Source: a virus
Lineage: Duplodnaviria > Heunggongvirae > Uroviricota > Caudoviricetes
Length of the DNA: 40,095 bases
Strand: one strand, 5' to 3'
Virus record (IMG/VR): IMGVR_UViG_2740892121_000006
Span: 1 to 40,095 of that record
The notes beneath the pieces were generated by a model, which ran no database searches, had not been told where the DNA came from, and saw only the letters and a program-made list of their open reading frames with translations. Positions 3,151-21,313 of the stretch are shown one piece after another; within the stretch, counting starts at the first letter, position 1, and every line of letters begins with the position of its first letter. The position numbers and the translations under genes are program-made.

Positions 3151-5613
3151 TCAATTCCCTGTTAATTGCAAAACTTGCTCTTCCAGCTTTTTAACCCTGC
3201 GTCTCATCATCGCAGATTCCAGAATCAGAGCCTCTTCATAACGGATACCGTAACATTCACCAGCCTCGACGGCTTCGCGTACCAGAACCTTTGTCTGTAT
3301 AAGTGGGTAAACTCCTGCAGAATGCTCTTCTTCCGTCACATCCCTGTATTCTGCCGGGGTCTCATTCCACTTGTCATAACAGATAAATGCCAGTCGTGAC
3401 ACATCTATGCCTTCATTCTGAAATACACTGATAACATGCTGCGCAACTGCACCAAAGTGCCATCTTGCTCCGTCTTTACCTTTCACTTCGATCCTGTCAA
3501 GGTACTGGTATGAAACCCATTCCACTCTTTCCCATGCGTCCAGTATTTTCTCATCAATAACCTCTGGAGCAGTCTTGAAACGCGCATCGGACAGCACCGT
3601 AAACGCTGACTGGGTAAATCCCCCCGACCATGCACGACCAGCCAACCCAAGAGAATAAGTATTCGTTTTCGATGGTGTCATGGCTGAATCAGAAAACTGT
3701 ATATATTCTGAATTTCCAGTAGATATTCGAATATTTCCATTTATTAGCGACATAGTGCCTTTAGTATTATCACTATTGAATAATTTCAATTGCGAACTTA
3801 TACCGCCTCCCACAGCCAGAGATACATCGCCTTCAGCAAGCATTCTGAATTTATCTGCAGAAACAAGCGTCTGGTTAGCAAGGTTAAAATATTTAACCCA
3901 CCATTCAAAACGCCCTGACATAGTCCCAACGTACTGACCAAGCGCAGGGACGTGAACAACATTGCTATTTGTAGTGCCGTCTATACTGGAAATACCAGTC
4001 ACCGCTGATGCAGAACTCAGAATATTATTTCTGTCACCCGGATGTTTAATTTCAACAAAGTTCCTGATACACCCTTCCTCGAAGGTAACCACGCCGGAAG
4101 AACTATACATGGGGAATATTGACGCATAATTACTGCGTGCAGCATCTAAGAAACGAATGGTTGTAGATGTCTGCAGATCTCCTGATTCATTTTTCCCATC
4201 ACACCCAGTCATTAGAATATTACTGGCAATATTATTATTTCCCTGAACGGTGACGCCGTGCGCCTGCTTTGCGTCCGATTCAGAGTAATCAACCAGCACA
4301 TTCGAAATCAGGTTACCAGTCCCCTTGCCAACAACTACTGCGGCGTATTTTGGGTTGTTAGCCATTACACTGCTAATGATATTATTCGTTGGTGCAGTTT
4401 CCGTCTCAGTTCCATTGTAAACAACGTGCTGACACTCTTCACCAATAACATTGCTGACAATGTTATATTTTGCTGCTGTTTTAAGTTCCACTGCACCAAA
4501 CTGAGGATAATTTCTGGCTATCACACCATCAATTAGCGTATTTTGCGATGAATCAAAAAGCACACAACCTGCTTTTTTATTATTTGCGAACCCTAAATAC
4601 TCTCCTCTTATATCTCTAACAATGTAACCTGACGGAATACCATTATTCGGATAAGCGATCAAGCTAAATCCTGTTCCTCGCGTATTTGTAAATCTGATAT
4701 TTTTAACCGATACATCATGGCCACCTGAAAATGACACCTGGTGTCCCTGCACACTATCATCTGATTTATTTCCCATAATTGTTAGCGTACTAAGCATGCC
4801 ACCATCGGGCATGTTAAAAACCAGATGATTACCATCTCTGTCATACTGTTTTATCGTTCCCCCACCTGTTCCGTACAAGCCACAACGTGAAAGAGAAACT
4901 AAAGATGTATTGAATACCCCTTCCGGAACAAAAACACTGCTAAACGAATGTAATGATTTTGTAAAAGCATCCTTGTTATCATTTAAGATTCCATTTTGAG
5001 CTCCAAAATCCTTAATGCTGACACCATCACGCATCTTATCCTGGAACGTTCTGTATACCGCTCCAGAACCATACTGAATAAACCAACCAAAACCACCAAT
5101 AACTCCGGCGATTGCAGCATCGACATAATTACGCATTGAGCGATTATTTACAGCGTCCTGCTCAAGTGATGGATCGGCAAGGTTAGATATTCTGTTTTGC
5201 TTTGCATCGTAATATTTTGCAAGCAAAGATGGTTTCATCAATGCACGTCTGAACCACCCAAAACATCGCTGGATCAGCATCGTCAGGTAGTCAAATGCAT
5301 CCTCATGAACTTCGGGGAAAAATTTTCCCTGATTGCGAAGATCAGTCTCCTGCACCACATCAAGCACACGCTCTATCGTGATTCGCCAGCCAGCAGCAAG
5401 CGGCGACGGAAGAACCACTGCACCGCCACTATAAGTTCCCGCCCCTGTTACCGTATAACCAGCATCCAGCACTAGTTTTGTAACGTTACCGTTAAGGTCA
5501 GACACCTGAACAACCAGGTCGGATTTTTTGAAAATACGGAAGGTATACGGAAATGATGTCGTAACGCCGTTACCTGTGTATTCGTTGTGGTCAACTTCGG
5601 TTGAGACCGTCAT
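3151..5613 (-). CDS. Tailspike / tail fibre with T7-fibre-like N-terminal anchor and C-terminal S74 intramolecular chaperone
   Basis: N-terminus YTGNGVTTSFPYTFRIF resembles phage tail-fibre N-domain; long Gly/Asn/Ser-rich central region (beta-helix-like); C-terminus SDARFK...GARWHFGAVAQHV matches endosialidase-chaperone (peptidase S74) pattern; SD GGAG. Confidence 0.8.
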   Translation of the reverse strand: MTVSTEVDHNEYTGNGVTTSFPYTFRIFKKSDLVVQVSDLNGNVTKLVLDAGYTVTGAGTYSGGAVVLPSPLAAGWRITIERVLDVVQETDLRNQGKFFPEVHEDAFDYLTMLIQRCFGWFRRALMKPSLLAKYYDAKQNRISNLADPSLEQDAVNNRSMRNYVDAAIAGVIGGFGWFIQYGSGAVYRTFQDKMRDGVSIKDFGAQNGILNDNKDAFTKSLHSFSSVFVPEGVFNTSLVSLSRCGLYGTGGGTIKQYDRDGNHLVFNMPDGGMLSTLTIMGNKSDDSVQGHQVSFSGGHDVSVKNIRFTNTRGTGFSLIAYPNNGIPSGYIVRDIRGEYLGFANNKKAGCVLFDSSQNTLIDGVIARNYPQFGAVELKTAAKYNIVSNVIGEECQHVVYNGTETETAPTNNIISSVMANNPKYAAVVVGKGTGNLISNVLVDYSESDAKQAHGVTVQGNNNIASNILMTGCDGKNESGDLQTSTTIRFLDAARSNYASIFPMYSSSGVVTFEEGCIRNFVEIKHPGDRNNILSSASAVTGISSIDGTTNSNVVHVPALGQYVGTMSGRFEWWVKYFNLANQTLVSADKFRMLAEGDVSLAVGGGISSQLKLFNSDNTKGTMSLINGNIRISTGNSEYIQFSDSAMTPSKTNTYSLGLAGRAWSGGFTQSAFTVLSDARFKTAPEVIDEKILDAWERVEWVSYQYLDRIEVKGKDGARWHFGAVAQHVISVFQNEGIDVSRLAFICYDKWNETPAEYRDVTEEEHSAGVYPLIQTKVLVREAVEAGECYGIRYEEALILESAMMRRRVKKLEEQVLQLTGN

Positions 5614-5716
5614 GTTAAATCTCCAGATAGTCGCAGCACCCGTTGCGCCGCATATCTGGTTATTCTATTACCCAAAAAACCATATATGGATAGAAAGACT
5701 GTGAATATGAATAGAT

Positions 5717-5733
5717 ATTACCTTTCAGGTAAT
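5717..5733. promoter_or_regulatory. 17-bp palindrome ATTACC-N5-GGTAAT (candidate repressor operator)
   Basis: ATTACCTTTCAGGTAAT, perfect 6-bp inverted arms; about 75 bp upstream of small ant-like gene. Confidence 0.5.
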
Positions 5734-5769
5734 TTGCAAAACGTGCTGGATAGCAAACAAATTATTTGC

Positions 5770-5789
5770 TACTGTATAAATATACAGTT
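5770..5789. promoter_or_regulatory. LexA box (SOS operator)
   Basis: TACTGTATAAATATACAGTT = CTGT-N8-ACAG with AT-rich core, 18/20 match to TACTGTATATATATACAGTA; ends 6 nt before the first ATG. Confidence 0.7.
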
Positions 5790-5809
5790 ATTGCATGGAG
5801 AAGATTAAG

Positions 5810-6067
5810 ATGCAGCAGTATCACTATCCACTGGAAGAGGGATTTACCGAAAGGATTCACACGCCGGGAGGCGTCAGGTCACTGGTGGAGGGATCGCACT
5901 TGATGAAATTACTCCGGGATCTCGATAAGGATGGATTTAATGTCGATGGCCCACTTGCCGAACTGACTGCACTGATTAACTACGTCACCAGCTCACAGAT
6001 GTCTATGCAGGATCTGCAAACACATCTCGACTATTGTGCCGAACAATTACGAAAGCAAACCACATAA
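5810..6067 (+). CDS. Small antirepressor-like protein (stand-alone copy of Ant C-terminal domain), LexA-controlled
   Basis: About 40 percent identity by eye to the C-terminal 65 aa of the Ant protein at 7534-8226; start at second ATG (SD GGAG 9 nt upstream); track start 5795 also possible. Confidence 0.55.
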   Translation: MQQYHYPLEEGFTERIHTPGGVRSLVEGSHLMKLLRDLDKDGFNVDGPLAELTALINYVTSSQMSMQDLQTHLDYCAEQLRKQTT

Positions 6068-6090
6068 AGAAAAGGCCGCAAGAGCGGCCA
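6068..6090. terminator. Hairpin terminator between convergent genes
   Basis: Stem GGCCGC / GCGGCC (6074-6089) with loop AAGA; A-run on plus side gives T-run for minus-strand transcript ending gene B. Confidence 0.5.
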
Positions 6091-6597
6091 TTAACAGTCG
6101 AAAAATTCTGGGTCCCACAAACTTGCATCGCGCGGCATGGATTCTAACTTTTTCAGCCGCAAAATTCTGTCACACTCGACAACTAATTTTTGCTTCTGCT
6201 CGTCAATTTCTACTGTCTTATGTGCTGGTTCATCCCAATAATCCAGAAGGAAGGCATGGCGTTCAGATGTGACCAGATAAATCACATACACGTCACTGGT
6301 TGGGATCTTTTTATGCTTGTTAGTGGTCTTGTCTTTCTTCCCAGACGCCCAGTTTTTCCAGCATTGTTCCGTACCGCTCTCACCAAACTTGTCAGTATAG
6401 TTTCCGATGTTTACATGAACGTGGCGTATGTGATATTCCAGCATCTCTTTCGGTGGATCCCGAAACAGAGTGTCCTTTCCGAAATCCTTATGATGACCGT
6501 AGCGCCAGTGATCTATGAACGCGTTTTTGATAGGTATTAGCTCAGGGTCCTTCCCAAAAATTCCAGGGTGAACCAACCCCTGGAATTTATTCGGCAT
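6091..6597 (-). CDS. Hypothetical protein (gene B of two-gene moron operon)
   Basis: 168 aa from ATG 6597 (SD AGGAG), start overlaps last codons of gene A by 11 nt; His-rich segments GHHKDFGKD, HIRHVHV; no family recognised; track ORF extends to 6660. Confidence 0.5.
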   Translation of the reverse strand: MPNKFQGLVHPGIFGKDPELIPIKNAFIDHWRYGHHKDFGKDTLFRDPPKEMLEYHIRHVHVNIGNYTDKFGESGTEQCWKNWASGKKDKTTNKHKKIPTSDVYVIYLVTSERHAFLLDYWDEPAHKTVEIDEQKQKLVVECDRILRLKKLESMPRDASLWDPEFFDC

Positions 6598-7114
6598 CGT
6601 CGTAGAGCTCCTGAGCCATATCTTCAGCAGTGCGTGCAAACATCCTGCGCGAGATTGCATGGGATTTCTCTACGGACATCTTTGGGACCTCATGCATAAC
6701 AAGTTGATGAGTTTTCTCATCAACTTGAAGTGGCTTGTATAAACGTTGCCACCTTTCGTTAATTTTATCCTTAAAGCCAGCGAAACCACTTTCCTGACTC
6801 TTGTATCCAAAATGAGATAAAGCCAAATTCCTTTCCATTTCATTCCTAATGTACTCAGCAAGGTTGCAGTGGAATACTTCCCCTTGTTTTTTTAGGCATG
6901 CTTCATGGTCTGTAACACTGTGACGGCTCTCATATAAGTAAATGCGATAGGAATTTTTATTATCCTCTTCTTCATAATTTCTAATCGCATCAGCAGTTGC
7001 CATAGCTGCAGCGTAAGCGGCTGCTTCAATCACCATCTCTTGCTCTTTTTCTTTTTCAGGCCTTTTCAAGGCAAAGCGTCTATGCCTCATCGCTGTAACT
7101 CTCTTCGTGTTCAT
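6587..7114 (-). CDS. Hypothetical protein (gene A of two-gene moron operon)
   Basis: 175 aa from ATG 7114 (G-rich SD); basic N-terminus, largely helical, acidic C-terminus; no family recognised; track start TTG 7126. Confidence 0.5.
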   Translation of the reverse strand: MNTKRVTAMRHRRFALKRPEKEKEQEMVIEAAAYAAAMATADAIRNYEEEDNKNSYRIYLYESRHSVTDHEACLKKQGEVFHCNLAEYIRNEMERNLALSHFGYKSQESGFAGFKDKINERWQRLYKPLQVDEKTHQLVMHEVPKMSVEKSHAISRRMFARTAEDMAQELYDDAE

Positions 7115-7125
7115 GGGCACCCCCA

Positions 7126-7142
7126 ACTACCTTTAGGGTAAA
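7126..7142. promoter_or_regulatory. Degenerate copy of the 17-bp palindrome
   Basis: ACTACCTTTAGGGTAAA, one mismatch per arm; overlaps the translation-initiation region of gene A. Confidence 0.35.
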
Positions 7143-7250
7143 CATTCTATCGAAAGTATACGCTCACTGGCAAAAAAATAGGCAGGTATTTTCTGAAATG
7201 GGATCAATCAAACCACATAGGGTTGAAATAACGTGAGTTATGCATTTATT

Positions 7251-7267
7251 ATTACCTTTACGGTAAA
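7251..7267. promoter_or_regulatory. 17-bp palindrome (candidate operator) upstream of ant
   Basis: ATTACCTTTACGGTAAA; preceded by TTGAAA-N17-TTATTA promoter-like hexamers on plus strand. Confidence 0.45.
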
Positions 7268-7359
7268 TTTACATTGCACTCCTCTTGTGCCATAGTAATC
7301 AGGCACTGGCAAAATCCAGTGCCGGGATTGGTCTCCCGGATTACTACAGAGGCACATAT

Positions 7360-7379
7360 GCCGCATAAGCGGTTTTTTT
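7360..7379 (+). terminator. Intrinsic terminator-like hairpin plus U-run inside the ant leader
   Basis: GCCGC-ATAA-GCGG followed by TTTTTTT; two further hairpins just upstream (7302-7323, 7322-7339). Confidence 0.4.
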
Positions 7380-7533
7380 ATGTGTAAAGCGCACCTATTC
7401 TATGGTGGGCTGTGTGGGGGCACCGAAAGGTGCGCCGGGTTCCTTTGTAGCCGGTAAGACCAACTCTGCACAGTTCACCACCATCTGATTGGTCTCAGCG
7501 GTGGTGATTAACCTAACTACAAAGGTGATCGCC

Positions 7534-8226
7534 ATGAATACCAAACCTTCCATCTTTTCCTTTGAGTCATCCTGCCAGATCCGTATGTTCATGATTGACG
7601 GAGAACCTTGGTTTGTCACCAAAGATGTGTGCAATGCTTTGAATATTGATGTTACACAAGCGAGAAAACTTGATAAAAAAGGCTGGAACAAAAAGGGGCT
7701 GTATTCAATACAGACCCCTGGTGGAATACAAGAACTATCCATCGTTTCAGAATCAGGTCTCTACATCCTTATTCTGCGTTGCAAAGAGGCAATGACAGAG
7801 GGAACGAGAGCATTCAGATTTCTTGAATGGGTTACAGGTGAGGTTCTTCCTCAGATCCGCCGCACCGGAAGTTACATTAAAAACTCGCTCCCGCAGGAAG
7901 AACGCATAAAGATGGTTGCCGACCAGGTAGCCAACGCCACAGCATCAGCAGTGATGCAGGCAATGAAGATAGAGAACAAAACCTACAGTGCCCCACTGAA
8001 GCCCGGCTACCGCAGCCTGATTCACTCGCCGTCTGGTGTTCTCGGCCTGACGGAGAACTCACTGCTGATGAATCTGCTGAACCAGTTACAGGACGACGGG
8101 CACGACGTATCGGGCGCGGCGGCGGAGCTGACCACCATGTTCTGCTACATCGTTGGTGTGAGCAAATGCCTGCGTGATATCCAGACGCACGCGGAGTACA
8201 TCAACGACAAAGCAGGGTTCTTCTGA
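7534..8226 (+). CDS. Antirepressor (Bro-N/AntA-type N-terminal domain plus C-terminal domain)
   Basis: N-terminus IRMFMIDGEPWFVTKDVCNALNI...GLYILILR typical of Bro-N/Ant domain; ATG 7534 with SD AAAGGTGA; track ORF begins at TTG 7489. Confidence 0.7.
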   Translation: MNTKPSIFSFESSCQIRMFMIDGEPWFVTKDVCNALNIDVTQARKLDKKGWNKKGLYSIQTPGGIQELSIVSESGLYILILRCKEAMTEGTRAFRFLEWVTGEVLPQIRRTGSYIKNSLPQEERIKMVADQVANATASAVMQAMKIENKTYSAPLKPGYRSLIHSPSGVLGLTENSLLMNLLNQLQDDGHDVSGAAAELTTMFCYIVGVSKCLRDIQTHAEYINDKAGFF

Positions 8227-8309
8227 CGGAGGCGGCACAGGGATGTGCCTACAATTATCAATAATTGTTTACACTCGTTGCAGTTAAAAGCATTATACTC
8301 ATGTTTAAA

Positions 8310-8326
8310 ATTACCCGATTGGTAAA
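8310..8326. promoter_or_regulatory. 17-bp palindrome (candidate operator)
   Basis: ATTACCCGATTGGTAAA just downstream of a TATACT -10-like hexamer and 20 nt before ATG 8347. Confidence 0.45.
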
Positions 8327-8346
8327 GTCGATTGGTTGAGGTTCAT

Positions 8347-8673
8347 ATGAGCAGAAGATATGTCAAGGAGCTGGCTATAGAGTCTGGCACCCCTTTGGGT
8401 ATCGTTCCTGGCTCCAACTATGCCAAGGCTTTAAACCGAGACTCTGTCGTCAAAGTTATATCAAGAGACATGAATATGGTCGGAGACGATCTCAGACGGT
8501 CAGAAAATCGTGTTTATGCTGAATATATAGTAAAGAACGGAAAAAAAATTGCAGCGCCTGCTGGCGGAAAATGGGCAATAGTGACAGGGAAAAACTCAAA
8601 TGCAAGAGGAAAACCAGAAGCTAAAGGAATGTCCTTCGACAAATATGCAAAAATCTATTGGGCAACCAAGTGA
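8347..8673 (+). CDS. Hypothetical protein (moron operon, first gene)
   Basis: 108 aa from ATG 8347 with SD GAGGT; basic, no recognised motif. Confidence 0.45.
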   Translation: MSRRYVKELAIESGTPLGIVPGSNYAKALNRDSVVKVISRDMNMVGDDLRRSENRVYAEYIVKNGKKIAAPAGGKWAIVTGKNSNARGKPEAKGMSFDKYAKIYWATK

Positions 8674-9148
8674 TAACGAAGAAACTGAGTTCGAGGAAGT
8701 TGAGGAAGGGCTAAGTAACGAGATCATTCAACACCCAGATGCCTTCACAAGAGTTCTTGATCGCCCTGAAATTCAGGAGATAGTTGTCGCTCACCATGCG
8801 TTTCAGGGTCCGCTTCCTCCCCCCTATCTGCTTCGCGGGTATCAGGATATTTTACCTGATGCCCCCGAACGCATCTTCCAGCTGACGGAGAAGGAGTTTG
8901 CTCACCGCCAGAAAATGGAGGAAAAGGCACTTGACGGGGCTATTAATAGAGATAAACGTGGGCAGTGGTTTGGCCTGAGTGCAACTATTTTTACAGTAGC
9001 TTGTGCAACATTATTAGGTTTAACAGGTCATGAAGTTCTAGCTGGCACAGTGATCGGTACAGTTGTTGCAGTGGCTGGTATTTTCGTTCTTAGACAAAAA
9101 CCAAGCATCAAGAAGAAATCTGAAGACAACAAACCTGAAGAAAAGTAA
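8600..9148 (+). CDS. Membrane protein, acidic N-terminal domain plus two C-terminal TM helices (DUF2335-like by recollection)
   Basis: C-terminal hydrophobic helices FGLSATIFTVACATLLGL and TVIGTVVAVAGIFVL; start ambiguous (ATG 8600 or 8645); overlaps upstream gene. Confidence 0.45.
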   Translation: MQEENQKLKECPSTNMQKSIGQPSDNEETEFEEVEEGLSNEIIQHPDAFTRVLDRPEIQEIVVAHHAFQGPLPPPYLLRGYQDILPDAPERIFQLTEKEFAHRQKMEEKALDGAINRDKRGQWFGLSATIFTVACATLLGLTGHEVLAGTVIGTVVAVAGIFVLRQKPSIKKKSEDNKPEEK

Positions 9149-9169
9149 GCCCGCGCTGCGGGCTTTTTT
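9149..9169 (+). terminator. Rho-independent terminator
   Basis: GCCCGC-GCT-GCGGGC then TTTTTT directly after the TAA of 8600-9148. Confidence 0.65.
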
Positions 9170-9241
9170 GTGGACGAAACAAAAGTCAGTGCTACACTCA
9201 TTAACGCCACATTGAGGTGGCTTATAGATGGAAATTTCACA

Positions 9242-9403
9242 ATGAAAAAAGCATTTGCTGCACTGTTCGTTTTGTTGTCTCTGGTAGCTTCAACTCAGGC
9301 CTTTGCCGGTCGTTGTCAGCACGACAGCGACACTGCTGCTGACGGCTCCCGCTGCGGTGGGCGTTCTGCGGATTCCCGCCCGGGCGGCGGTGGCATTCGT
9401 TAA
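9242..9403 (+). CDS. Small secreted peptide (about 53 aa)
   Basis: MKKAFAALFVLLSLVASTQAFA signal peptide followed by Cys/Gly/Asp-rich 30 aa; ATG 9242 inside longer GTG-initiated track ORF. Confidence 0.4.
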   Translation: MKKAFAALFVLLSLVASTQAFAGRCQHDSDTAADGSRCGGRSADSRPGGGGIR

Positions 9404-9425
9404 AAACAAGGCCGCGAAAGCGGCC
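9404..9425 (-). terminator. Hairpin terminator for minus-strand gene 9440-9889
   Basis: GGCCGC-GAAA-GCGGCC (9410-9425); plus-strand A-run TAAAAACAA gives the T-run for the minus-strand transcript. Confidence 0.45.
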
Positions 9426-9426
9426 T

Positions 9427-9438
9427 GTGACATGTCAC
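9427..9438. repeat. 12-bp perfect palindrome GTGACATGTCAC (copy 1)
   Basis: Identical 12-mer recurs at 29024-29035; related GGCATGTCAC at about 26759. Confidence 0.5.
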
Positions 9439-9439
9439 G

Positions 9440-9889
9440 CTACTTGCGAAATCTTTCTTTACCCTTCCAGCCAGTAGATGTTAGTTCAGGATGAATGGTT
9501 CCCAATATAAAGCCAACCATAGCGGAGCGAGGATCTTCTATTTTATCCGTTAATTCTTCGGCATAACTCACAGGCAACCAAGCAACAAGATCACCAATCC
9601 TCAGCTTTGGTCCTTTGCTGTAAGATGAATCGGCAATAACAAAAAATCCACCATCAGCTGAGCACACCTTCAGCATTGCCCTTTGTCTTCCAGAATCTAG
9701 CAAAACTGGCTGTTCCCCACTTGGACCAGGTATGATGATGGCTGGCATTGGTTTATTGGCTGAAAGGCTTGTGTCAAGATACTTACACGCATACTCAAAA
9801 GCTGAAAAGTTATCCTTAAAGATAAGAGGTTGAATTTTATTGCTAACCTCCTTACCACCGATTAATCTGTTGATCATCTTCTTGAACAT
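9440..9889 (-). CDS. Hypothetical protein
   Basis: 149 aa from ATG 9889 with SD AGGTGA; track start is GTG 9898; no family recognised. Confidence 0.45.
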   Translation of the reverse strand: MFKKMINRLIGGKEVSNKIQPLIFKDNFSAFEYACKYLDTSLSANKPMPAIIIPGPSGEQPVLLDSGRQRAMLKVCSADGGFFVIADSSYSKGPKLRIGDLVAWLPVSYAEELTDKIEDPRSAMVGFILGTIHPELTSTGWKGKERFRK

Positions 9890-9901
9890 AAAGGTCACCT
9901 A

Positions 9902-10342
9902 ATGATTAAGCCGATGCACGCTATTACAGCTACCGTTTTGTTTATCCTACCAATTTTTTCGTTTGCAAACGACATATGTTTTAAGAATTTAATAAATGAG
10001 GATATGTGTGCACATGCAAACAAAATTGCATCAGAAGCAGGAAAGTCACTTCCCATAAAATTGAATGATAATATGTCTATTGTTTCAATAAATGCAATAC
10101 TAAACAAACTTTTAGTTGTAGCGCATCTTAATTACAACAACAGCTATTTATCAAAAGTTTATAACGGTGATGTAACCTTAGAAAATAAATTAAAGAGTGT
10201 AATGCGAAATTATTCAAAATCGAGCATTTGCTCCAACAGGCAAATGAAAGCATTTATTCACCTTGGCGGAGAGATTGAATATAGGTATGTATTTAGTGAT
10301 GGCAATATATTTGATACATACGCCATCACTAATTGTGAATAG
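9902..10342 (+). CDS. Secreted Cys-containing protein of unknown function (AT-rich moron)
   Basis: Signal peptide ending FSFA; 4 Cys; markedly AT-rich coding sequence; SD AAGGT; start only 13 bp from the divergent start at 9889. Confidence 0.45.
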   Translation: MIKPMHAITATVLFILPIFSFANDICFKNLINEDMCAHANKIASEAGKSLPIKLNDNMSIVSINAILNKLLVVAHLNYNNSYLSKVYNGDVTLENKLKSVMRNYSKSSICSNRQMKAFIHLGGEIEYRYVFSDGNIFDTYAITNCE

Positions 10343-13300
10343 CTATTTCATCTGCTCTTCAACTTTATTTAGTAACGGTGATATCGCCCACAGGTTCTGA
10401 AAAGGTAGCATTTTACGGACCGCGTGGGTTTGCTGGCTGTCAAATTCTCCGTTAAGTACACCATTCGCAACCGTCGCGGCATCACCGCCAAGATCAAAGG
10501 TAGGACCAAGTAAAGCACCAATAGCATTACGACTCTGAAACCTTGATACCGGAGGCGCACCAAACATCGCGCCAAGACCAAACCTACCGCCGCTTATGTT
10601 CTCAACGGTATTCAGCGGCTCAGAGAGCCAGCCAAGCATTCCGCCCCGGTCGATCCCCTCTTTCACAAGGTTATTCCAGCTGTAGTCGATATCGCGACCG
10701 CTTAACTTCTGTTTCATCATATAGACCATTGAGCCAAGCGCAATCGTGCCAAGCGCACCAAGATAGAATGCAGCATCGCCCTGCTGGATACCAGATACTA
10801 GCACCCTGTTATGCTGTGCGAAGATAAACGTTTTGAACTGCGTGATCATCTTCCAGCCTTCTTTACTAAAAAACAGCGGTGTATCACCTACGCCAGGCGT
10901 TACAATCACTGAGTCTACATCTTTCAGCACTGCAGACTGGAAAATCTCTCTAGCGAAACGGTCATCCCACAGATGACTATGCCCGGTTAACAGCCCGTCC
11001 ATATCCTCTCCGTGCTTCCCGAATTGCTCCCCGATTCGGCGCAGAACATCTTCATTGATGCCGACCTGTGCCATCTTCCGCATTTCACTTTTGGAGAGCG
11101 TGCCACCAGCAGAAACTTGGCGAGCCGCGTCAAGTATCCTCGACTGCACTATCATCCCGGACCATGATTTAAGTGCGCTGTTCCACTGATTCATCAGCGT
11201 CCAGTTACCGAATTTCTGCGTCATCCAGTTCAGACCTCGCTCAGCGGCGCTTCTCCGGCTATAGGGGTCAGTAAGATCCGCTATAGCCTTTGTACGCGTA
11301 GACAGGACATAATCAAGCCCAACGGCCATTTCTCGCAAATCCCTGGTTGCAATTTTCACTGAGTCCATATTTTTAAGCATGCTTACCATTGGTCCGAGAG
11401 ATTTTCTCAGGCCATGCTGCATCATCGGTCGCATCAGATCAGTTGCAGCGGAGACAGTCATTCCACCAAGCAAACGGAGGAAGTTAATATTCCTAGCAAC
11501 TCGCCCGGCACGAACAAAGAAACTGCGTGGATCTTGAGGTGCACCGTAAGTACCAAGCAGTCGATCACGCATAGCCGTAATATCCCTAATATCAGCCTCC
11601 CGTTGCTTCTCAAGAACTGCACGTCGTTTAGGTGTTTTAGCCTCTTTTATTAGCCGGGTATATTCCTCACTAACCTGACGGATTTGCTCCCCCATATCTT
11701 TACGGCCAAACTGCGCAGTCAGCTCAATTTCTGGTGCCACCTGCCGGAGATAACTTTCCATGATGTAGTTAACATCTGATTCAAGAAAATCTTCTATACG
11801 CTCATCAGGAATAAGCAGCGTTCTGCTTTTAGTGAAACCAGCCCGACCAACGAGTTTCTCTGGGATAATATCGGCTGGTACAAGCCCGGAAGGTGCGCCT
11901 ATTATTTTATTCACGATCTCGTCAGCAGCGTCCTCTGCTTCCTCTCGGGATAGAGGCTCCATCTGCTTCAGTGCTCGTTCGCGGCTTGCATTCAGCCTTG
12001 TGGTTGAATTTGCCCGTTTTTGCAGTCGGCGAAGCTCAGAACGATATTTCCGTGGATTATCCAGCAACTCCATATGGCGCTGATAGACAGGAAGCTCACT
12101 CTTTGCCTGCGCTATATCATCAAGGCGTGTTTTAAGGTCAGAGCTTTCTTTCATCATTCTTGCCTGAAGTTTTTCTGATGAAGTCTCGGCCAACTCTTTT
12201 TCTATTCTTGTAAGACGCGCCTGTGTGTCAGTCTCCTGAGATATAAGCTTATTTCGTTTATCCAGTTCTTCCATGAGTAGAATTTTTTTACCAGACCATT
12301 TCTCCGCTTCAGCGATTTCACTAGCGAGAGCATCAGCGCGCGGTGCCGATTCCTCTGCAGTTTTTAGCAATGAATTTATCCTTTCAATTCGCTGACCTGC
12401 TTTGTCAGCACCTTTGGCACTAATCCCTTGTATCCAGTTGGCAATTCGCCCTCTGAATTCAGTGCGGTCGGAAAGTATCTTATCGAACTTATAAATGCGG
12501 GGAAGATAACTTTTCGCCGTCACGACATCGATATCCTCAGGAAGGATCCCCAGTTCCTGCATACGGGCTTTTGTGGTCTCGAAAATGGGGCGGATTCTGG
12601 CGGCTGCTTGTGAAACCTCAGGAATATCACTCTGATCACCACGGCGCATAGCCATGCCAACAGCTTCATTGAAATCAATAAAGTTCATCCTCTTCACGCC
12701 GCGGGCGCTAACAGATTTGCTGTACTGCTGGTAAGCATCACGAGTGGCTTCCATCTGCTTATAAAGCATGGCGTCGTATTGCTTAATCTTAGTCTCGACT
12801 GCCGTAAACGTAGCCAACCCCTCATCATTTTTGGCGAAGAAATAGTTATTTTCGGCAAGCTGCTGGTTAATCTGACGGGAGACAAGAGATGGTGATTGAG
12901 CCAAGCGGCCAGCAGGAGTGACACTCAACGTTTTGTTAGCAAGTCCAAGTCCAGCGAGCTGTTCCTGATCGAGTGTGGTATTGAAAACCTGAGCTGCACC
13001 AATGCTTTGAGGAGAATCCATACCTCGCAAATGATTACCTACTGAGTTAACCACTGCCTCGCGCGCGCTAGGTCCAGCAAGTAGCTGTGCACCAGCACCA
13101 AGGATCCCACCAACGAGAGCATCAACAACAACGTTCGATACGCTCTCCATCGGTGAGCGAGCTTCCTGAGTGGCCTGTAATGCGGCTTCTGATACTCCCC
13201 CACCAGCAGCATTCGCCAGGGCAAAACGCCCTGCCGTCTCAGCAATACTTCCTCCACGCGCTACCGCCCCTACAGGGATAAACATTGCAGCCACATTAAC

Positions 13301-13732
13301 CGGGTCTATCATTCCCATTGCTAAGCTTGAAATAGTACCAGCACCACCCATTTCAGATAGATATTCTCTATCTGTTCTTTGCTTATCGATTCGATGTTTA
13401 ATTGCCATTGTTTCTTCATGCGAACCGGAGTTGATAAACGAATCTGCAAAATCTTCATAGCCTTTAATATCTGCTGCATCGTTATCAAATGGGTTATATC
13501 CTTCAACCCTGTCAAACTGACTGAAAGGAGCACTGGCAATAAAGCTACCCAGCGTGTTATCTATACGAAATGCTGCTTGTCTAGACCTTTGAACGCGTTG
13601 ATCACTGGTAAATGGGTTCACAGCAGAAAGCAAAGAAGGTGTTTCCATATAGAAATTACTGTCATCAGGTGCTGCTATTTGCTGAATATCCTCGCCAAGC
13701 AACTCTTTAGGATCCTGTTCATATATCGGCAT
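10343..13732 (-). CDS. Large internal virion / ejection protein (1129 aa)
   Basis: Gly/Ala-rich N-terminal region, long central coiled-coil (residues about 450-620); position equals T7 gp16 slot. Confidence 0.45.
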   Translation of the reverse strand: MPIYEQDPKELLGEDIQQIAAPDDSNFYMETPSLLSAVNPFTSDQRVQRSRQAAFRIDNTLGSFIASAPFSQFDRVEGYNPFDNDAADIKGYEDFADSFINSGSHEETMAIKHRIDKQRTDREYLSEMGGAGTISSLAMGMIDPVNVAAMFIPVGAVARGGSIAETAGRFALANAAGGGVSEAALQATQEARSPMESVSNVVVDALVGGILGAGAQLLAGPSAREAVVNSVGNHLRGMDSPQSIGAAQVFNTTLDQEQLAGLGLANKTLSVTPAGRLAQSPSLVSRQINQQLAENNYFFAKNDEGLATFTAVETKIKQYDAMLYKQMEATRDAYQQYSKSVSARGVKRMNFIDFNEAVGMAMRRGDQSDIPEVSQAAARIRPIFETTKARMQELGILPEDIDVVTAKSYLPRIYKFDKILSDRTEFRGRIANWIQGISAKGADKAGQRIERINSLLKTAEESAPRADALASEIAEAEKWSGKKILLMEELDKRNKLISQETDTQARLTRIEKELAETSSEKLQARMMKESSDLKTRLDDIAQAKSELPVYQRHMELLDNPRKYRSELRRLQKRANSTTRLNASRERALKQMEPLSREEAEDAADEIVNKIIGAPSGLVPADIIPEKLVGRAGFTKSRTLLIPDERIEDFLESDVNYIMESYLRQVAPEIELTAQFGRKDMGEQIRQVSEEYTRLIKEAKTPKRRAVLEKQREADIRDITAMRDRLLGTYGAPQDPRSFFVRAGRVARNINFLRLLGGMTVSAATDLMRPMMQHGLRKSLGPMVSMLKNMDSVKIATRDLREMAVGLDYVLSTRTKAIADLTDPYSRRSAAERGLNWMTQKFGNWTLMNQWNSALKSWSGMIVQSRILDAARQVSAGGTLSKSEMRKMAQVGINEDVLRRIGEQFGKHGEDMDGLLTGHSHLWDDRFAREIFQSAVLKDVDSVIVTPGVGDTPLFFSKEGWKMITQFKTFIFAQHNRVLVSGIQQGDAAFYLGALGTIALGSMVYMMKQKLSGRDIDYSWNNLVKEGIDRGGMLGWLSEPLNTVENISGGRFGLGAMFGAPPVSRFQSRNAIGALLGPTFDLGGDAATVANGVLNGEFDSQQTHAVRKMLPFQNLWAISPLLNKVEEQMK

Positions 13733-16479
13733 TATTTGCCCCCTGCGTATATATTGCTCGGAAGGTAATTGGCTGAACCATAACCGAATGGTTTGGTCAG
13801 ATCTGGAGGAGTATATCCATCTTTATTGCTGAACTGCGGCAGCGGATTGCCTTCTCTCCGCACTCTAGCCTCATCAACACGCTGTTGCTGGAACTGAATG
13901 GTTTGCCTGTACATTGGAGATGTCAGCTGATCCGGCTTGAAACGAACAGGGAGACCATTTTCTCCAATATAATTTCTCGGTTCTATCGCTCCGTTTGCGT
14001 CAGGCTGTAAAACCATAACAGCATAACTCCTATCCCTTGCCGTAAGGCCATCAGAAACAAGTATTAAGTCCGTATCACTGCGAGGACCGCCAAAGGATTT
14101 TGATTTAAGCTCGCGTTTTTCCTGCTCCCACTGCCCCTGTATCCAGTTACCAGCACCATTATTTACTCCGTACAATGCCTCAGGTGCATACTTCATAACC
14201 TCTGCTTTGCCATTAACCGTAGAAACTCCCCAGGTGGTTCTGATCATGGCATTGGTCATTTTCTCAGCCTGTTCTGCATCGCCACCTGTCTGTACAAAGT
14301 TAGCATCGTAAATTGTCTGGTAATCTCGCTGATAGGCCGCATTTGATTTTCCTGGATCGGTAATATCCGGAGACCACGAACCAAAGGAAGTCAGACTGCT
14401 GGCGTTATTTTGTGCAGCAGTTGCCCTCGCCGCGACATATTTTTTGTCTCGCATGGCAGTGGAAAGCATCTGTTTCATTCGGTCATCCTGTTGGAACACC
14501 TGGCTGTAAGCCATATCAACAGCCTTATCCTCCGGCACGCCAGCGCGGGAATAATCGTAAACCTTGCCGTAAAATGCCATCGTACTTTTATCAAGTGTTG
14601 CCGCTGCCGCCGGATTATTATCGAATAACTGACCGTAGAATTTTGCCATCGGGACAACCAGCGCAGGATCTCTTGATGTTGCTCCACTGTTAAGCATTGT
14701 TTTAACCTGAGTTGGTATCATGCCGCTTTTAGTTGTGACGGTGACCAGTGTATTGATGCTCTGCGGATCAGATATGGAAAACGAAGGCGCGATATCCTGC
14801 GCGAAATAACGGTCTACCGCTGCCTGATTGTTTTTGTCGTTCGGGTCCAGCGGGAAGTTATTTTGCATTGAAGACACGAACCTGTTTCTTCCCTGCTGAA
14901 TCTCCCACTCCCTATCCATCTCTTTAAATTTGGCCTGCATTTTCTCCCAGCGTTGCTGGTTAGCTGCAAATCCAGGAGCGTTTGGATCCTGTGGACGTAA
15001 ACGTTCAAGAATGTCTTGTCGTCCTTCTGGAGTGAGGTCTTTAGCGGCACCAATGACACCTCCATATTGTATCTGCGCCTGCATATCCTTCCACTTCATA
15101 GCGCCAATGCGCGGACCATTGGCCCGGATAAAATCGTCCTCAGAAGGTAACTTCTCAGGTTTCAATCCTTCATCAAGGGCTGAATATGCATCTTTAACTA
15201 CGGTGCTAAGCTGGTCCGCATACTGCTGGCGGTACTGATTTCTCAGCTCATTAGCCTGCCTCAATGCCTGTATTTGCATTTGAGGGCTCATAGCATCAAA
15301 TGCCGCATTGCCTGTATAACGCTTAGGTGAATCAAGGTTAGTTAGACCAAGGGCTGCCGAGATACCAGTTTCAAGCTGTTCGGTGCTATAAGGCATACTG
15401 CCATTTTCGTGTTTAATAATCCCAGCACATAAAGCAGCTAGTGTCTTTGGGTTAGAGATATCAAGCTGATCATTCTCCCCAACACCAAGCTCACCACACA
15501 ATGCCCTAATATAAGCATCAGTATTATTACCATCACTAGCCGGAGCATAGCGATTAACAATCTCGCTAACGGTGTCATAGCCTTGACGCTGGTAAGACAA
15601 CATATTTTTACCCAACGCGCGGATTCCATGCTCAGGGGTAGCAAACGTTGCAAAACGTCCATCGCTACCGATCTGACCTTCCCACGGGTTAGATTTGCTC
15701 GCTTCAATATTACCAGGGTTATTATTACGTAAACCACGAGCATCCAATGAATTACCATGTGATATTGCACGACTCACACCATCAAGATCCCCTGGCTCTC
15801 CATTAACCTGAAGAAACTCGTTGTATTTTTGAGCGATATTTCCTATCCATGCTTGCTGCCCCATTTGTTCCTTGAGCTGAGTTTTCTGCTGAACACGCCA
15901 CTCATCAGGAAGCCCATGCGCATCAGCGTATTGATCAATAGATTCAAATCGCTGCTTGGCTAAATCGACAAATGCTTGGTTATCGCTATATAGCCCCGCA
16001 GACTGAGTGACAGCCAATGCATTTCCTGACAAATACGTTTGATCTTGGAATTGCTGAAACTGCCCAACTTCATATCGACGTGCCTGATTGTAATAAGACT
16101 GCATAGACTGCTGGAGTTGAAAGGATAATTTATTCCTTTCCTCACTTTCAGGAATTGAACCTAATAATGCCTGAGCCCTTTCCTGCATATTTTTCATAAC
16201 AGCGTCACTCTGACCAAGAGCGTTTTTACCCTGTTTAGAAATCAGCCCACTTTCAGGGTTGTTAATCTGGTCATCTGCAAATTGGTTAAATTGCAGTAAC
16301 GCCTCCTGGGCCATAGCAACATTCGCTTTCTGCCTGGCTTCACCATATGCCACCGCATACTGATCTGCGACATTCGCCAGCACCTGACCTGCTTGAGGAA
16401 CATCGAAGATCTGAAAACCACCGGTTTGCACACCACGACTTTGCACCTGACGTCCGGATGTAGTAGGAACAACAGGCAT
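13732..16479 (-). CDS. Internal virion protein with putative cell-wall hydrolase-like motif region (915 aa)
   Basis: Conserved-looking block RGLRNNNPGNIE...GRFATFATPEHGIRALGKNM; ATGA overlap with downstream gene; position equals T7 gp15 slot. Confidence 0.45.
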   Translation of the reverse strand: MPVVPTTSGRQVQSRGVQTGGFQIFDVPQAGQVLANVADQYAVAYGEARQKANVAMAQEALLQFNQFADDQINNPESGLISKQGKNALGQSDAVMKNMQERAQALLGSIPESEERNKLSFQLQQSMQSYYNQARRYEVGQFQQFQDQTYLSGNALAVTQSAGLYSDNQAFVDLAKQRFESIDQYADAHGLPDEWRVQQKTQLKEQMGQQAWIGNIAQKYNEFLQVNGEPGDLDGVSRAISHGNSLDARGLRNNNPGNIEASKSNPWEGQIGSDGRFATFATPEHGIRALGKNMLSYQRQGYDTVSEIVNRYAPASDGNNTDAYIRALCGELGVGENDQLDISNPKTLAALCAGIIKHENGSMPYSTEQLETGISAALGLTNLDSPKRYTGNAAFDAMSPQMQIQALRQANELRNQYRQQYADQLSTVVKDAYSALDEGLKPEKLPSEDDFIRANGPRIGAMKWKDMQAQIQYGGVIGAAKDLTPEGRQDILERLRPQDPNAPGFAANQQRWEKMQAKFKEMDREWEIQQGRNRFVSSMQNNFPLDPNDKNNQAAVDRYFAQDIAPSFSISDPQSINTLVTVTTKSGMIPTQVKTMLNSGATSRDPALVVPMAKFYGQLFDNNPAAAATLDKSTMAFYGKVYDYSRAGVPEDKAVDMAYSQVFQQDDRMKQMLSTAMRDKKYVAARATAAQNNASSLTSFGSWSPDITDPGKSNAAYQRDYQTIYDANFVQTGGDAEQAEKMTNAMIRTTWGVSTVNGKAEVMKYAPEALYGVNNGAGNWIQGQWEQEKRELKSKSFGGPRSDTDLILVSDGLTARDRSYAVMVLQPDANGAIEPRNYIGENGLPVRFKPDQLTSPMYRQTIQFQQQRVDEARVRREGNPLPQFSNKDGYTPPDLTKPFGYGSANYLPSNIYAGGK

Positions 16480-17054
16480 CAGTAACCTCCTATTTTGAAT
16501 CGGGAGTCAGAATTCATAAAACCTGAGTTAGATAACATTGGCGTCCCACCACTAGATGTACTTCCTTTAGAGAACGGACTCCACGTCCCACCAAACATCT
16601 GGTACGCACCGTATGCCTTCAGAGGCGCAGTGAGCAATGTTGTTGCTGCTCCCACATTCCCCTGTTTACGGGCTGAACTGGCTTCTGCTTTATAGTTGGC
16701 AGCCTGAACCTGATAACCGTAAGCCTCGCGTTGCGCGTTATTCACCGTCGTCAGAGAATCAAGAGCGCCAAACTGGGCAGTGTCGCCAAATATATCCAGC
16801 GCGTTACCTGTAGATAAATCAGCGCCGGTAGCCCCCATTGTCGCCGCCTGTGTACCAAGCCGCTGTCGGGTCTCTCTGCGCCGTTGCTCAGCTTCAGCGT
16901 TACCTCTGTTTATTGCATCATTTGCCTGAGCTGTGGCTATATCTGCGTTCGCTTCTGCAACCTTCGAGGCATACTTTCCCTGTTGGTACTGGGTGTATGC
17001 CTGAATGCCACTCATGGCGAGCATTGCGCCACCAGCAATAACCGGATCGCACAT
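16479..17054 (-). CDS. Internal virion protein (191 aa)
   Basis: Ala/Gly/Gln-rich, overlapping stop/start with neighbours; structural-operon context. Confidence 0.4.
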   Translation of the reverse strand: MCDPVIAGGAMLAMSGIQAYTQYQQGKYASKVAEANADIATAQANDAINRGNAEAEQRRRETRQRLGTQAATMGATGADLSTGNALDIFGDTAQFGALDSLTTVNNAQREAYGYQVQAANYKAEASSARKQGNVGAATTLLTAPLKAYGAYQMFGGTWSPFSKGSTSSGGTPMLSNSGFMNSDSRFKIGGY

Positions 17055-17518
17055 TATTTTCTCTCCATGTGAAATCTGTGGAAATTAAGACCAAGAGCAC
17101 CATAAGGCGCGGCTTCTTCAAGCCTGAATCCAAGCCAGTGCAGCCATGCTTTGGCAACATGGTTTCGCTCGTCGACATAGTTTTCCAGGCGCGGATAAAC
17201 TGCCAGCATCTGCTGCAATACAGGGCGGCAGTGGCGCAGAAATGTCTTCTGATATTTTTCAATACGGCTGGTCCCGACCAGCCATGGCGTACCATTGCCA
17301 CCGATCATTGACGCCGGAGATACACCAAACATGGTTACCAGCTCTCCGTTCGCGAACCCTGACCAGGCCATAGTCGCAGTGCGCAGACCAACACGCAGCG
17401 CATCTTCGGTAGTCATCAGCGATACCGCATACAGTTCGTCAATATCAGCCTGACGAACATCCGGCAAAATCATCTGAAGATGCTCTTCGGTAGCGGGAAT
17501 AATTCGAACATCGATCAT
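17054..17518 (-). CDS. Virion-associated protein (154 aa)
   Basis: Operon context between tail tube gene and internal proteins; ATGA-type coupling. Confidence 0.4.
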   Translation of the reverse strand: MIDVRIIPATEEHLQMILPDVRQADIDELYAVSLMTTEDALRVGLRTATMAWSGFANGELVTMFGVSPASMIGGNGTPWLVGTSRIEKYQKTFLRHCRPVLQQMLAVYPRLENYVDERNHVAKAWLHWLGFRLEEAAPYGALGLNFHRFHMERK

Positions 17519-19989: not shown

Positions 19990-20594
19990 CAGGACAACCT
20001 CGCAATGGTAAACTCATCAACCGGTGGCTGTGGTTCCTGTGATTCATTCTGGCTATGCGAGCCAGCACTAAGAATCACGCGATTGTACATATTGAGGGCA
20101 AACGTACCGAGGTCTGCATTCCCAGTCAGCGCCATGTTAATAGCTGCCGCAAGACGCCAGGCCAACGCCTCCATAAAAATGGCATCAAACATGTTCACAT
20201 CTGTAACGCGAGAGACATACTTGAGCCATGCCTGAGGCTGGTCTGTATAGATCAACTTTCCTGTTCCGTTGGTGTCTGCACCAACTTCGTACTGAACGCG
20301 CATTGCTGCTGTTGGATTGCGTACACCAGGAAGCATAATTTCAGTAATGCGCAGACAATCGGACGGGTACTGATACGCATATTCCCAGTCAGGCGGTGGA
20401 TTGCTCGTATCTGCAAGCGCCACGCGTTTAGTAGCAAAGTTCCAGTCAAAATCAGAAAGCACAGCATCACGGCAGGCTTCAAAGTGCAGCGAACATTCCC
20501 CCGCTTCCTTGCTGGCTTCCGTCAGGCTGTTAATGCTGCGGCTATTGCCAATATTGGACAGCGCACGATTGCAGATCTCTACTACAGAGGCCAT
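19989..20594 (-). CDS. Tail tubular protein A-like / adaptor (201 aa)
   Basis: Size and position analogous to T7 gp11; overlapping stop/start. Confidence 0.4.
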   Translation of the reverse strand: MASVVEICNRALSNIGNSRSINSLTEASKEAGECSLHFEACRDAVLSDFDWNFATKRVALADTSNPPPDWEYAYQYPSDCLRITEIMLPGVRNPTAAMRVQYEVGADTNGTGKLIYTDQPQAWLKYVSRVTDVNMFDAIFMEALAWRLAAAINMALTGNADLGTFALNMYNRVILSAGSHSQNESQEPQPPVDEFTIARLS

Positions 20595-20923
20595 TACTCA
20601 CCCCCATTGCCGTACAGAGTTTCAGCCGCTGATTTTTCTACATCCCCGGAAACAGGAGCGATCGCCATATCAGTGATCTGCAGATCGGCGCTACGATTAA
20701 CACCATCGTCAGTTTCTCTGGCAGACAGGCCTCGAATAACAGCCTTTGCAGTTATCATCACTTCTGTTCCGACGCCCTGAGGTTGCGCCTTCAGCTTATT
20801 CAATGTGTCGTTATTAAGAGTGATGCACAGCCCCCACGGGTATTCATCGCGAGTTCTGGTTTCTCCGCTCTCATCCTGGTAGCTGTCAGTGCCGGTTTTG
20901 AGGTTTACGAGTTCCATATACAC
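20594..20923 (-). CDS. Small head-tail joining or head-completion protein (109 aa)
   Basis: Position between capsid-proximal genes and tail tube genes. Confidence 0.35.
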   Translation of the reverse strand: MYMELVNLKTGTDSYQDESGETRTRDEYPWGLCITLNNDTLNKLKAQPQGVGTEVMITAKAVIRGLSARETDDGVNRSADLQITDMAIAPVSGDVEKSAAETLYGNGGE

Positions 20924-20967
20924 TCCTGCAATAAAGGGGCCGAAGCCCCTTGTCTGATCCGCGAGGC

Positions 20968-21303: not shown

Positions 21304-21313
21304 CGATATCACC

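Follow-up and report, generated by a model that had tools for sequence, protein, structure and literature searches.

Positions 8310-9169 of the viral record IMGVR_UViG_2740892121_000006 (Caudoviricetes; the window in the following is this whole stretch of 40,095 nucleotides) hold a small plus-strand unit of two open reading frames, ORF1 and ORF2, which raises the question what such a unit does for its phage and at which stage it is switched on. A first-pass annotation had read it as a moron operon expressed in the lysogen, with a membrane-acting exclusion or abortive-infection function. As described below, the promoter of the unit carries a predicted operator of the prophage repressor, and ORF1 belongs to a family of small proteins encoded directly in front of genes for DUF2335 membrane proteins. 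New in this analysis are the universal small partner of DUF2335, the context of the unit in a phage cargo slot and its gating by the repressor, the latter as predicted from the operators.

Architecture of the ORF1-ORF2 cassette

The window comes from a short-tailed temperate phage of the phiV10/epsilon15 type (genus Uetakevirus), and its gene order agrees with that of phiV10 and epsilon15. Over the stretch 8200-9450, Escherichia phage EC.W1-9 shows 99.5% and vB_EcoP_ZX5 (ZX5 below) 99.3% identity with the window, and E. coli chromosomes carry the matching region as a prophage. ORF1 and ORF2 form a self-contained two-gene cargo unit of this temperate E. coli phage, called the cassette here, which is slightly richer in A and T than the window (GC fraction 0.44 versus 0.484) and has the following features:

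8251-8268, A/T-rich 18-bp palindrome ACAATTATCAATAATTGT, abutting the -35 hexamer of P1 and unique in the window
8268-8296, plus strand, promoter-like sequence P1, TTTACA-17-CATTAT, kept in the cassette copies L006, L021, L027 and L037
8284-8311, plus strand, promoter-like sequence P2, TTAAAA-16-TAAAAT, whose -10 hexamer shares two bases with the operator
8310-8326, predicted operator ATTACCCGATTGGTAAA, a putative repressor site with the palindrome ATTACCCGATTGGTAA at 8310-8325
8338-8341, plus strand, Shine-Dalgarno sequence GAGG, 5 nt ahead of the ORF1 start codon
8347-8673, plus strand, ORF1, from ATG 8347 to TGA 8673, 108 amino acids
8600-9148 or 8645-9148, plus strand, ORF2, from ATG 8600 (182 amino acids) or ATG 8645 (167 amino acids) to TAA 9148
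8816-8965, plus strand, DUF2335 core of ORF2 according to Pfam, residues 73-122
8966-9028, plus strand, first predicted transmembrane (TM) helix of ORF2, about residues 123-143
9035-9094, plus strand, second predicted TM helix of ORF2, about residues 146-165
9147-9172, plus strand, intrinsic terminator AAGCCCGCGCTGCGGGCTT followed by a T run, overlapping the ORF2 stop and forming the right end of the cassette

Everything that the first-pass annotation had described is found again in this layout: a palindrome at the promoter, which is present as ATTACCCGATTGGTAA exactly at its start coordinate, a strong Shine-Dalgarno sequence, a 108-residue basic protein followed by an overlapping protein of 150-180 residues with an acidic N-terminal domain and two C-terminal TM helices, a strong terminator (an 8-bp stem with 6 GC pairs at 9147-9165 plus the T run) and an orientation opposite to the late operon, as the structural operon occupies 10343-25474 of the minus strand. 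The ribosome-binding sequence GAGGT is kept across all enterobacterial copies of the cassette. Both genes are under purifying selection, with a ratio of nonsynonymous to synonymous substitution rates (dN/dS) of 0.18-0.35 in ORF1 (non-overlapping part) and about 0.07 in ORF2. The reading frames overlap by 74 nt if ORF2 starts at ATG 8600, as in RefSeq, or by 29 nt if it starts at ATG 8645, as annotated in EC.W1-9, and this overlap makes translational coupling of the two genes probable.

ORF1 has an isoelectric point (pI) of 10.0, with 21 lysine and arginine against 10 aspartate and glutamate residues, contains no hydrophobic segment and is predicted to be a basic cytoplasmic partner protein. 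Its residues 12-59 form a conserved N-terminal core (ESGTPLGIxPxSxY...DMxxVGDDLRR), and a variable linker leads to the conserved C-terminal sequence FDKYAKIYWATK. The family as a whole has the same layout, with a core IE[AS]G[ST]PLGIxPxSxY...D[MF]xxVGxDxR, a variable and probably disordered linker and a C-terminal FxKYAxLYxxTK. ORF1 matches phrog_10654 over its full length (residues 1-108 of 108, E 9.5e-66) and has no match in Pfam, NCBIfam or PADLOC. The family is tiny, with 19 clusters among 5.8 billion proteins in a profile search and 11 representatives among 1.84 billion proteins in a full HMMER pass. When 17 partner proteins were compared with Pfam at E<=10, scattered single weak matches were obtained (e.g. 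DUF7299 with E 0.008 for one member) and no family could be assigned; likewise, the family profile had no match at E<=10 among PDB sequences. An A8 homopolymer lies within ORF1 at 8541-8548, and several read-assembled database variants (P0004-P0006) are frameshifted there or at a nearby A5 run, one of them yielding an ORF1-ORF2 fusion. These frameshifts are probably sequencing or assembly errors, slippage being the alternative.

ORF2 is a member of the family PF10097 (DUF2335), with 57.2 bits against a gathering cut-off of 25, an E value of 1.6e-15 and profile positions 1-50 of 50 covered, and it also matches phrog_3996 (E 8e-60). Residues 1-122 have a pI of 4.75 and include the acidic run EETEFEEVEE, hydropathy analysis gives two hydrophobic segments with peaks at about 132 and 155, and the C-terminal tail is basic. 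An AlphaFold model calculated from a 19-sequence alignment is all-helical, with a long helix (88-141) running into the membrane and a following helix (145-165); its mean predicted local distance difference test (pLDDT) score is 62.7, with 73-85 over residues 70-160. In 19 homologues down to 25% identity, G70, P71, L72, P73, P75, Y81, H102 and R120 are invariant and the TM hairpin is kept. ORF2 is therefore predicted to be an inner-membrane protein with an acidic cytoplasmic N-terminal domain and a C-terminal two-helix hairpin. Both termini would be cytoplasmic according to the positive-inside rule, since RDKRGQ precedes the first TM helix, the loop has only three residues and RQKPSIKKK follows the second TM helix.

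The family profile of ORF2 gave no match to PDB sequences at E<=10, and its model gave none to the PDB by Foldseek; in BFVD the model matched only two unnamed viral proteins, presumably members of the same family. Against NCBIfam and PADLOC no meaningful match was obtained, the only PADLOC signal being MTase_II at chance level (E 0.039). Databases label the cassette genes 'DUF2335 domain-containing protein' and 'hypothetical protein', and in a literature search we found no paper giving a function for DUF2335. The term 'DUF2335 (phospholipase)' in two papers on type VI secretion was rejected as a lead, as ORF2 has no domain of the size of a hydrolase; almost certainly DUF2235, the phospholipase family of the Tle1 type, was meant. 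The mistaken name could misdirect the annotation of DUF2335 proteins. Remote homology, which the first-pass annotation had proposed as a check, thus led to DUF2335, phrog_3996 and phrog_10654, and to no characterised family or solved structure.

Predicted gating by the prophage repressor

In the epsilon15 record (AY150271.2) seven sites of the form ATTACC-N5-GGTAAT were annotated by the depositors as 'protein_bind: repressor; lysogeny', and the cassette site at 8310-8325 departs from this consensus in a single position, the last base. The inner motif TACC-N5-GGTA occurs 12 times in the window, compared with 0.16 sites expected by chance, at the intergenic positions 5719, 7128, 7253, 8312, 25787, 28932, 31934, 31996, 33898, 34283, 34995 and 35057. 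A tandem array of three operator copies (34235, 34266 and 34283, the first two degenerate) is located between two divergent genes, which is the classical layout of repressor and operators, and two further copies are found 3' of the repressor gene:

33967-34197, minus strand, cro-like gene
34352-34936, plus strand, predicted prophage repressor gene, 194 amino acids with two helix-turn-helix (HTH) motifs

By size, position and gene order, the gene at 34352-34936 corresponds to phiV10 p40 ('putative transcriptional repressor'). The ZX5 repressor ORF21 is identical in sequence to phiV10 ORF40 and blocked the transcription of lytic genes when overexpressed, and the Bro-N protein encoded upstream of the cassette acts as an antirepressor in this near-identical phage (PMC9782041). 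Transcripts were measured there for genes other than those of the cassette. As the cassette-free phiV10 has ten such sites, the operator would be bound by a protein of the phage backbone and not by ORF1. The 12 sites and the array point to a genome-wide repressor regulon, matching the epsilon15 annotation; a literature search on the ATTACC/GGTAAT operator found nothing relevant published.

The cassette operator overlaps the -10 hexamer TAAAAT of P2 and covers about positions +8 to +23 of P1, and bound repressor should block both promoters. Because a repressor operator overlaps a promoter -10, the cassette is predicted to be off in the lysogen, where the prophage repressor probably silences it as long as lysogeny is stable; it should come on when active repressor is missing, that is in a fresh infection, upon induction or through the action of the antirepressor. 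Expression in the lysogen, which had been deduced from the self-contained signals, is accordingly not supported, as the very palindrome at the promoter is an annotated repressor site in epsilon15 and overlaps the -10. Of the designation as a moron, the own promoter and terminator and the presence or absence among close relatives hold, whereas the operator over the -10 points against transcription in the lysogen. The operator-like sites that were inspected adjoin -10-like hexamers elsewhere as well: at the antirepressor promoter TTGAAA-18-TATTAT runs directly into TACC, with the -10 at 7247-7252, the operator at 7251-7266 and the -10 ending in the AT of ATTACC, and at 35057 TTGACA-17-AATTAT is followed by TACC.

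A TTACC-N5-GGTAA palindrome abutting a -10-like hexamer also precedes cassettes outside the Uetakeviruses, in Rahnella lambdoid prophages, L005, L013, Enterobacter and Leclercia, where it is the sole such site in 8-10 kb (L009 4340, L010 4638, L047 3650, L013 510, L005 4677, L006 4708). The promoter region was co-transferred in the Enterobacter copy, with 71% nucleotide identity from 8250 onward, and the flanking DNA of the Rahnella copies is unrelated to the window. Either the Rahnella palindrome serves the same type of repressor or a cassette product also recognises the site. The distant pairs L014-L020 lack the palindrome. Outside a phage, as on an Enterobacter plasmid or in the defence island described below, expression of the cassette should be constitutive.

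Upstream of P1 two further elements were considered. A hairpin GGCACA-GGGA-TGTGCC on the plus strand (8234-8249), just 3' of the stop codon of the Bro-N antirepressor gene (TGA 8224-8226), marks the upstream boundary of the cassette unit. It has no U tract, its stem pairing is kept in relatives by compensatory changes (GGCGCA...TGCGCC in L021), and instead of terminating transcription it may serve for RNA processing or pausing; RNase III sites are annotated at comparable positions in epsilon15. The palindrome ACAATTATCAATAATTGT was rejected as a regulatory site, as it has no second copy in the window and other cassettes keep just its left half, which leaves the ATTACC-N5-GGTAA site as the relevant one; ACAATTATCAATAATTGT may be incidental or similar to an UP element.

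An Rfam scan of 5600-10400 revealed no RNA family within the cassette, and a Trp_leader match at the terminator was dismissed as chance (E 0.6). Upstream of the Bro-N gene (about 7534-8226), the scan returned an isrK-like Hfq-binding small RNA at 7303-7379 (74.7 bits), a C4 antisense RNA at 7398-7485 (78.6 bits) and, below the gathering threshold, an a1/b1 C4 target element at 7290-7342. From these elements at 7290-7485 the antirepressor appears to be under antisense control of the P1/P7 immI type in addition to the operator at 7251-7266. On the minus strand, a second cargo pair at 6091-7126 encodes a 179-amino acid protein (phrog_9503) followed by a 189-amino acid reading frame, whose shorter equivalent of 168 amino acids in a near-identical prophage is listed in RefSeq as a YafO-family type II toxin. 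An operator (7126-7141) immediately precedes the start of this toxin pair, which thus also looks repressor-controlled.

A phage cargo slot and the small partner of DUF2335

The accessory nature of the cassette, also proposed in the first-pass annotation, is evident from close relatives that lack it. Homology to TL-2011b and phiv142-3 is lost after 8273 and regained from 9148 and 9136, respectively, which places the cassette boundaries at 8274 and 9147; the same slot holds a 59-amino acid gene and a YafO-family toxin gene in TL-2011b and two small reading frames in phiv142-3. Among 5426 complete E. coli genomes, 533 match the flanks and 68 carry the cassette. In addition, 80 related IMG/VR loci were gathered by means of a conserved 56-amino acid gene downstream of the cassette (9233-9403), and more than 20 length classes can be distinguished for the interval between the last operator and this gene. 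YafO-toxin pairs account for 24 of these loci (the two largest length classes, 14 and 10) and the present cassette for 4; the remaining cargos include a DUF4760 membrane protein and several unit types in which a small gene precedes a larger one. A family could be assigned only to the YafO toxins and DUF4760. The slot is thus a hypervariable cargo position just downstream of the immI-like operon of c4 RNA and Bro-N antirepressor. In TL-2011b, phiv142-3 and Klebsiella, the other cargos are likewise preceded by the arrangement of -10 and operator seen at the cassette, which suggests repressor gating of the slot as a whole.

Every ORF1 relative that could be placed on DNA is encoded directly upstream of a DUF2335 gene and overlaps it. 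Such pairs occur in Klebsiella Uetakevirus-like prophages, in Rahnella lambdoid prophages (3' of the Q antiterminator gene and before the lysis genes), at a prophage end adjoining a gpJ-type tail fibre gene, on contigs of plasmids or phage-plasmids (10 nt behind a Rep3 gene, with parA/repL following), in an Enterobacter island and on further metagenomic contigs. Conversely, distant DUF2335 genes are preceded by shorter partners of 60-80 amino acids which keep the core SD[WF]xx[VI]GxD[LI]R. In Arthrobacter phage Gusanita the pair is gp36/gp37 between two integrase genes, in Streptococcus Javan prophages it follows the lysin gene lytA (holin plus lysin) at the prophage end, and short motif-bearing partners are likewise found on other viral contigs. 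DUF2335 homologues were also found in Leptospira LE1 phages. With a regular expression, an upstream reading frame containing the motif was detected at 89 of 100 DUF2335 loci, the other 11 being contig ends or motif variants; a scan of genome contigs yielded one locus and did not enter the statistics. In Klebsiella phage vB_Kpn_RAH1 an unannotated 65-amino acid reading frame with the core motif (L053 3278-3475; PV539235.1 about 29079-29276) overlaps the start of the DUF2335 gene (ORF58) and is missing from the deposited annotation.

The short partners of other phyla are homologous to residues 12-59 of ORF1 (hhalign probability 94%, E 1.2e-7), and the genes of pairs elsewhere overlap by 11-76 nt. 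The partner evolves faster, with 48-51% identity compared with 78-82% for the DUF2335 protein of the same locus pairs. Judged from these genomic comparisons, the ORF1-type partner and DUF2335 constitute an old, mobile and obligately paired two-gene module.

In Enterobacter the cassette resides in a defence island. An Abi (abortive infection) family gene is followed by a full-length homologue of PD-Lambda-4_A/Avs8A (PADLOC E=0; L006 668-4519 and L057 4001-7852), and the cassette lies 223 nt downstream. Avs8A, a STAND NTPase, acts as a sensor of major capsid proteins (bioRxiv 10.1101/2025.07.02.662641; 10.64898/2026.01.04.697583). On a related E. mori plasmid Avs8A is found and the cassette is missing, which argues for a unit separate from Avs8A. 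The possibility that the cassette represents Avs8B, the B component of PD-Lambda-4, was rejected, as neither protein matched a PD-Lambda-4 model and Avs8A occurs by itself on the related plasmid. The canonical second gene Avs8B seems to be absent at the Enterobacter loci.

Around the cassette, the tailspike gene occupies 3151-5613 of the minus strand. The 56-amino acid protein encoded at 9233-9403 has a signal-peptide-like N-terminus, belongs to phrog_14503 and has a Shine-Dalgarno sequence of its own. Beyond it, up to 10342, two convergent/divergent genes with no known function (152 amino acids, minus strand; 146 amino acids, plus strand) have a GC fraction of 0.37 and are probably further cargo within 9440-10342.

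Possible roles of the pair

From the obligate pairing, the gene overlap, the fast-evolving first gene, the accessory residence, the interchangeability with YafO pairs and the Enterobacter arrangement with Abi and Avs8A, we favour the reading that the pair is a toxin-antitoxin-like or abortive-infection-type membrane conflict module, to which we give somewhat less than an even chance. The DUF2335 protein would then act as the conserved effector in the membrane, probably in the form of a hairpin that oligomerises and disturbs the inner membrane or a process taking place there. Its fast-evolving partner would bind the cytoplasmic domain of the effector through the SDWxxVGxDxR core and, in Proteobacteria, also through the FxKYAxLYxxTK tail, and would either restrain or trigger it. 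Such a module would act when the prophage repressor is missing or inactivated.

Several points weigh against a conflict module. Neither protein has homology to a known toxin, antitoxin, Abi, superinfection exclusion (Sie) or defence family in Pfam, NCBIfam, PADLOC, PDB sequence and Foldseek searches, and the AlphaFold model of ORF1 is unusable (pLDDT 48). The ZX5 lysogen, which carries the cassette, had no phenotype in growth, stress and virulence assays (PMC9782041). It would be unusual for a defence gene to be repressed in the lysogen, repressor binding at 8310-8325 is a prediction based on annotation and on the statistics of the sites, and the 10-nt gap behind a plasmid rep gene could equally mean a role in replicon maintenance or membrane tethering. 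Homology to virion morphogenesis proteins, which the first-pass annotation had named as evidence against its proposal, was not found for the cassette proteins in the searches that were run.

Comparison with known systems gives partial likenesses. ORF2 is a bona fide member of DUF2335/PHROG 3996 and has, as all homologues, the core GPLPxP...Y...H...R-G-Q followed by two TM helices; the description of the family contains no function, solved structure or the upstream partner found here. With YafO-type type II toxin-antitoxin systems the cassette shares the co-directional overlapping pair, the small fast-evolving gene in first place and the residence on prophages, plasmids and islands, and in related phages a YafO pair even occupies the same position behind the same operator. 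It differs in having no sequence relation to any toxin-antitoxin family (Pfam, NCBIfam and PADLOC) and in that its transcription is apparently controlled by the phage repressor and not by the pair itself, the phage repressor site being the only conserved operator-like element at the cassette. SpoIISA/SpoIISB, a membrane toxin with a small disordered antitoxin, may be likened to it in the layout of a small protein plus a membrane protein. Lambda RexA/RexB and mycobacteriophage Sbash gp30/gp31 are two-component prophage defences consisting of a soluble partner and a membrane effector, and by description they resemble the cassette as prophage pairs of one cytoplasmic and one membrane protein. However, rexAB is co-transcribed with cI and thus on in the lysogen, where the cassette is predicted to be repressed. 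The P2/P4 hotspots, which are defence and cargo hotspots of temperate phages, likewise have constant flanks and signals for regulation, between which otherwise near-identical phages carry many different small cargo units; here, in contrast, the shared promoter region bears the operator of the prophage repressor, and the slot is apparently gated by it.

Superinfection exclusion, with the DUF2335 protein in the inner membrane of the lysogen stopping the entry of incoming phage DNA like SieA of P22, appears unlikely to us. The likeness lies in position and type of protein, as both are inner-membrane proteins of a short-tailed temperate phage whose genes stand in an accessory region beside the antirepressor (immI) region, with the ejection-protein genes on one side and the tailspike gene on the other, and the cassette has its own promoter and terminator. 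SieA acts from the repressed prophage (PMC10883804), however, whereas the operator of the main repressor overlaps the -10 of the cassette promoter; leaky or P1-driven transcription past a single operator is conceivable. SieA is moreover a single gene product with three TM segments, compared with two TM segments and a gene pair here, and known Sie proteins in general are single genes of narrow phage specificity, whereas the DUF2335 pair is obligate, spread across phyla and also present on plasmids and in a non-phage defence island. By sequence, BLASTP gave no alignment of ORF2 with SieA at E<=100, and hhalign a probability of 0.1% for the partner profile. A reading of the ORF1 tail FDKYAKIYWATK as the SieA motif FxRYPxEAxxFNK was rejected as well, as hhalign gives it no support.

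Expression restricted to repressor-free cells would also suit a pair that serves its own element after derepression, for instance in DNA-membrane tethering or the timing of lysis, and is not directed against competitors. Its place 10 nt past the Rep3 initiator gene and before parA/repL on phage-plasmid-like contigs, between Q and the lysis genes in Rahnella and right behind holin and lysin in Streptococcus fits such an early lytic or replicon helper, and the pI of 10 of ORF1 is compatible with nucleic-acid binding. A helper would hardly be as dispensable as the cassette, though, which is present in 68 of 533 related E. coli prophages and 4 of 80 IMG/VR relatives, nor is the interchange with YafO toxins in the same slot or the residence beside Avs8A and Abi genes without any phage expected of it, and we hold this explanation to be about as improbable as exclusion. 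Still less probable is a modulator of the lysis-lysogeny switch, i.e. a membrane-anchored pair that senses the state of the envelope or cell and tunes the activity of the antirepressor, ImmA/IrrE or the repressor. It could account for the Bro-N antirepressors adjoining the pair in E. coli, Klebsiella and RAH1, for a CapP/ImmA-like peptidase nearby in Leclercia, for an HTH-ImmA/IrrE fusion right after DUF2335 in L049 and for the location of the Gusanita pair in the integrase/immunity region. Accessory genes commonly cluster by immunity regions, however, so that adjacency is weak evidence, and many occurrences are without a switch gene (the plasmid rep operon, prophage ends and the defence island).

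The conflict-module reading can be taken one step further, to a rather doubtful proposal: the partner and DUF2335 would form an unrecognised, phylum-spanning membrane conflict system, and the toxin-like cargos of Uetakeviruses would fire only when repression collapses, be it by induction, by loss of the repressor or by the antirepressor of an invading phage. If true, the cargo slot would be a repressor-guarded trap or an arsenal for competition early in the lytic cycle. The common reading that an own promoter and terminator mean a moron expressed in the lysogen is corrected here, as the Uetakevirus slot, YafO pairs included, lies behind a predicted repressor operator. If this operator works as predicted, the phages would possess a class of cargo that is deployed at derepression and not in lysogeny, and which should be screened for in repressor-free cells or during induction. 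Such experiments would be straightforward, as the isolated phages vB_EcoP_ZX5 and EC.W1-9 carry the cassette. For DUF2335, a family hitherto without a functional handle, the constant partner found from Actinobacteria to Enterobacteria defines a two-component unit that can be tested.

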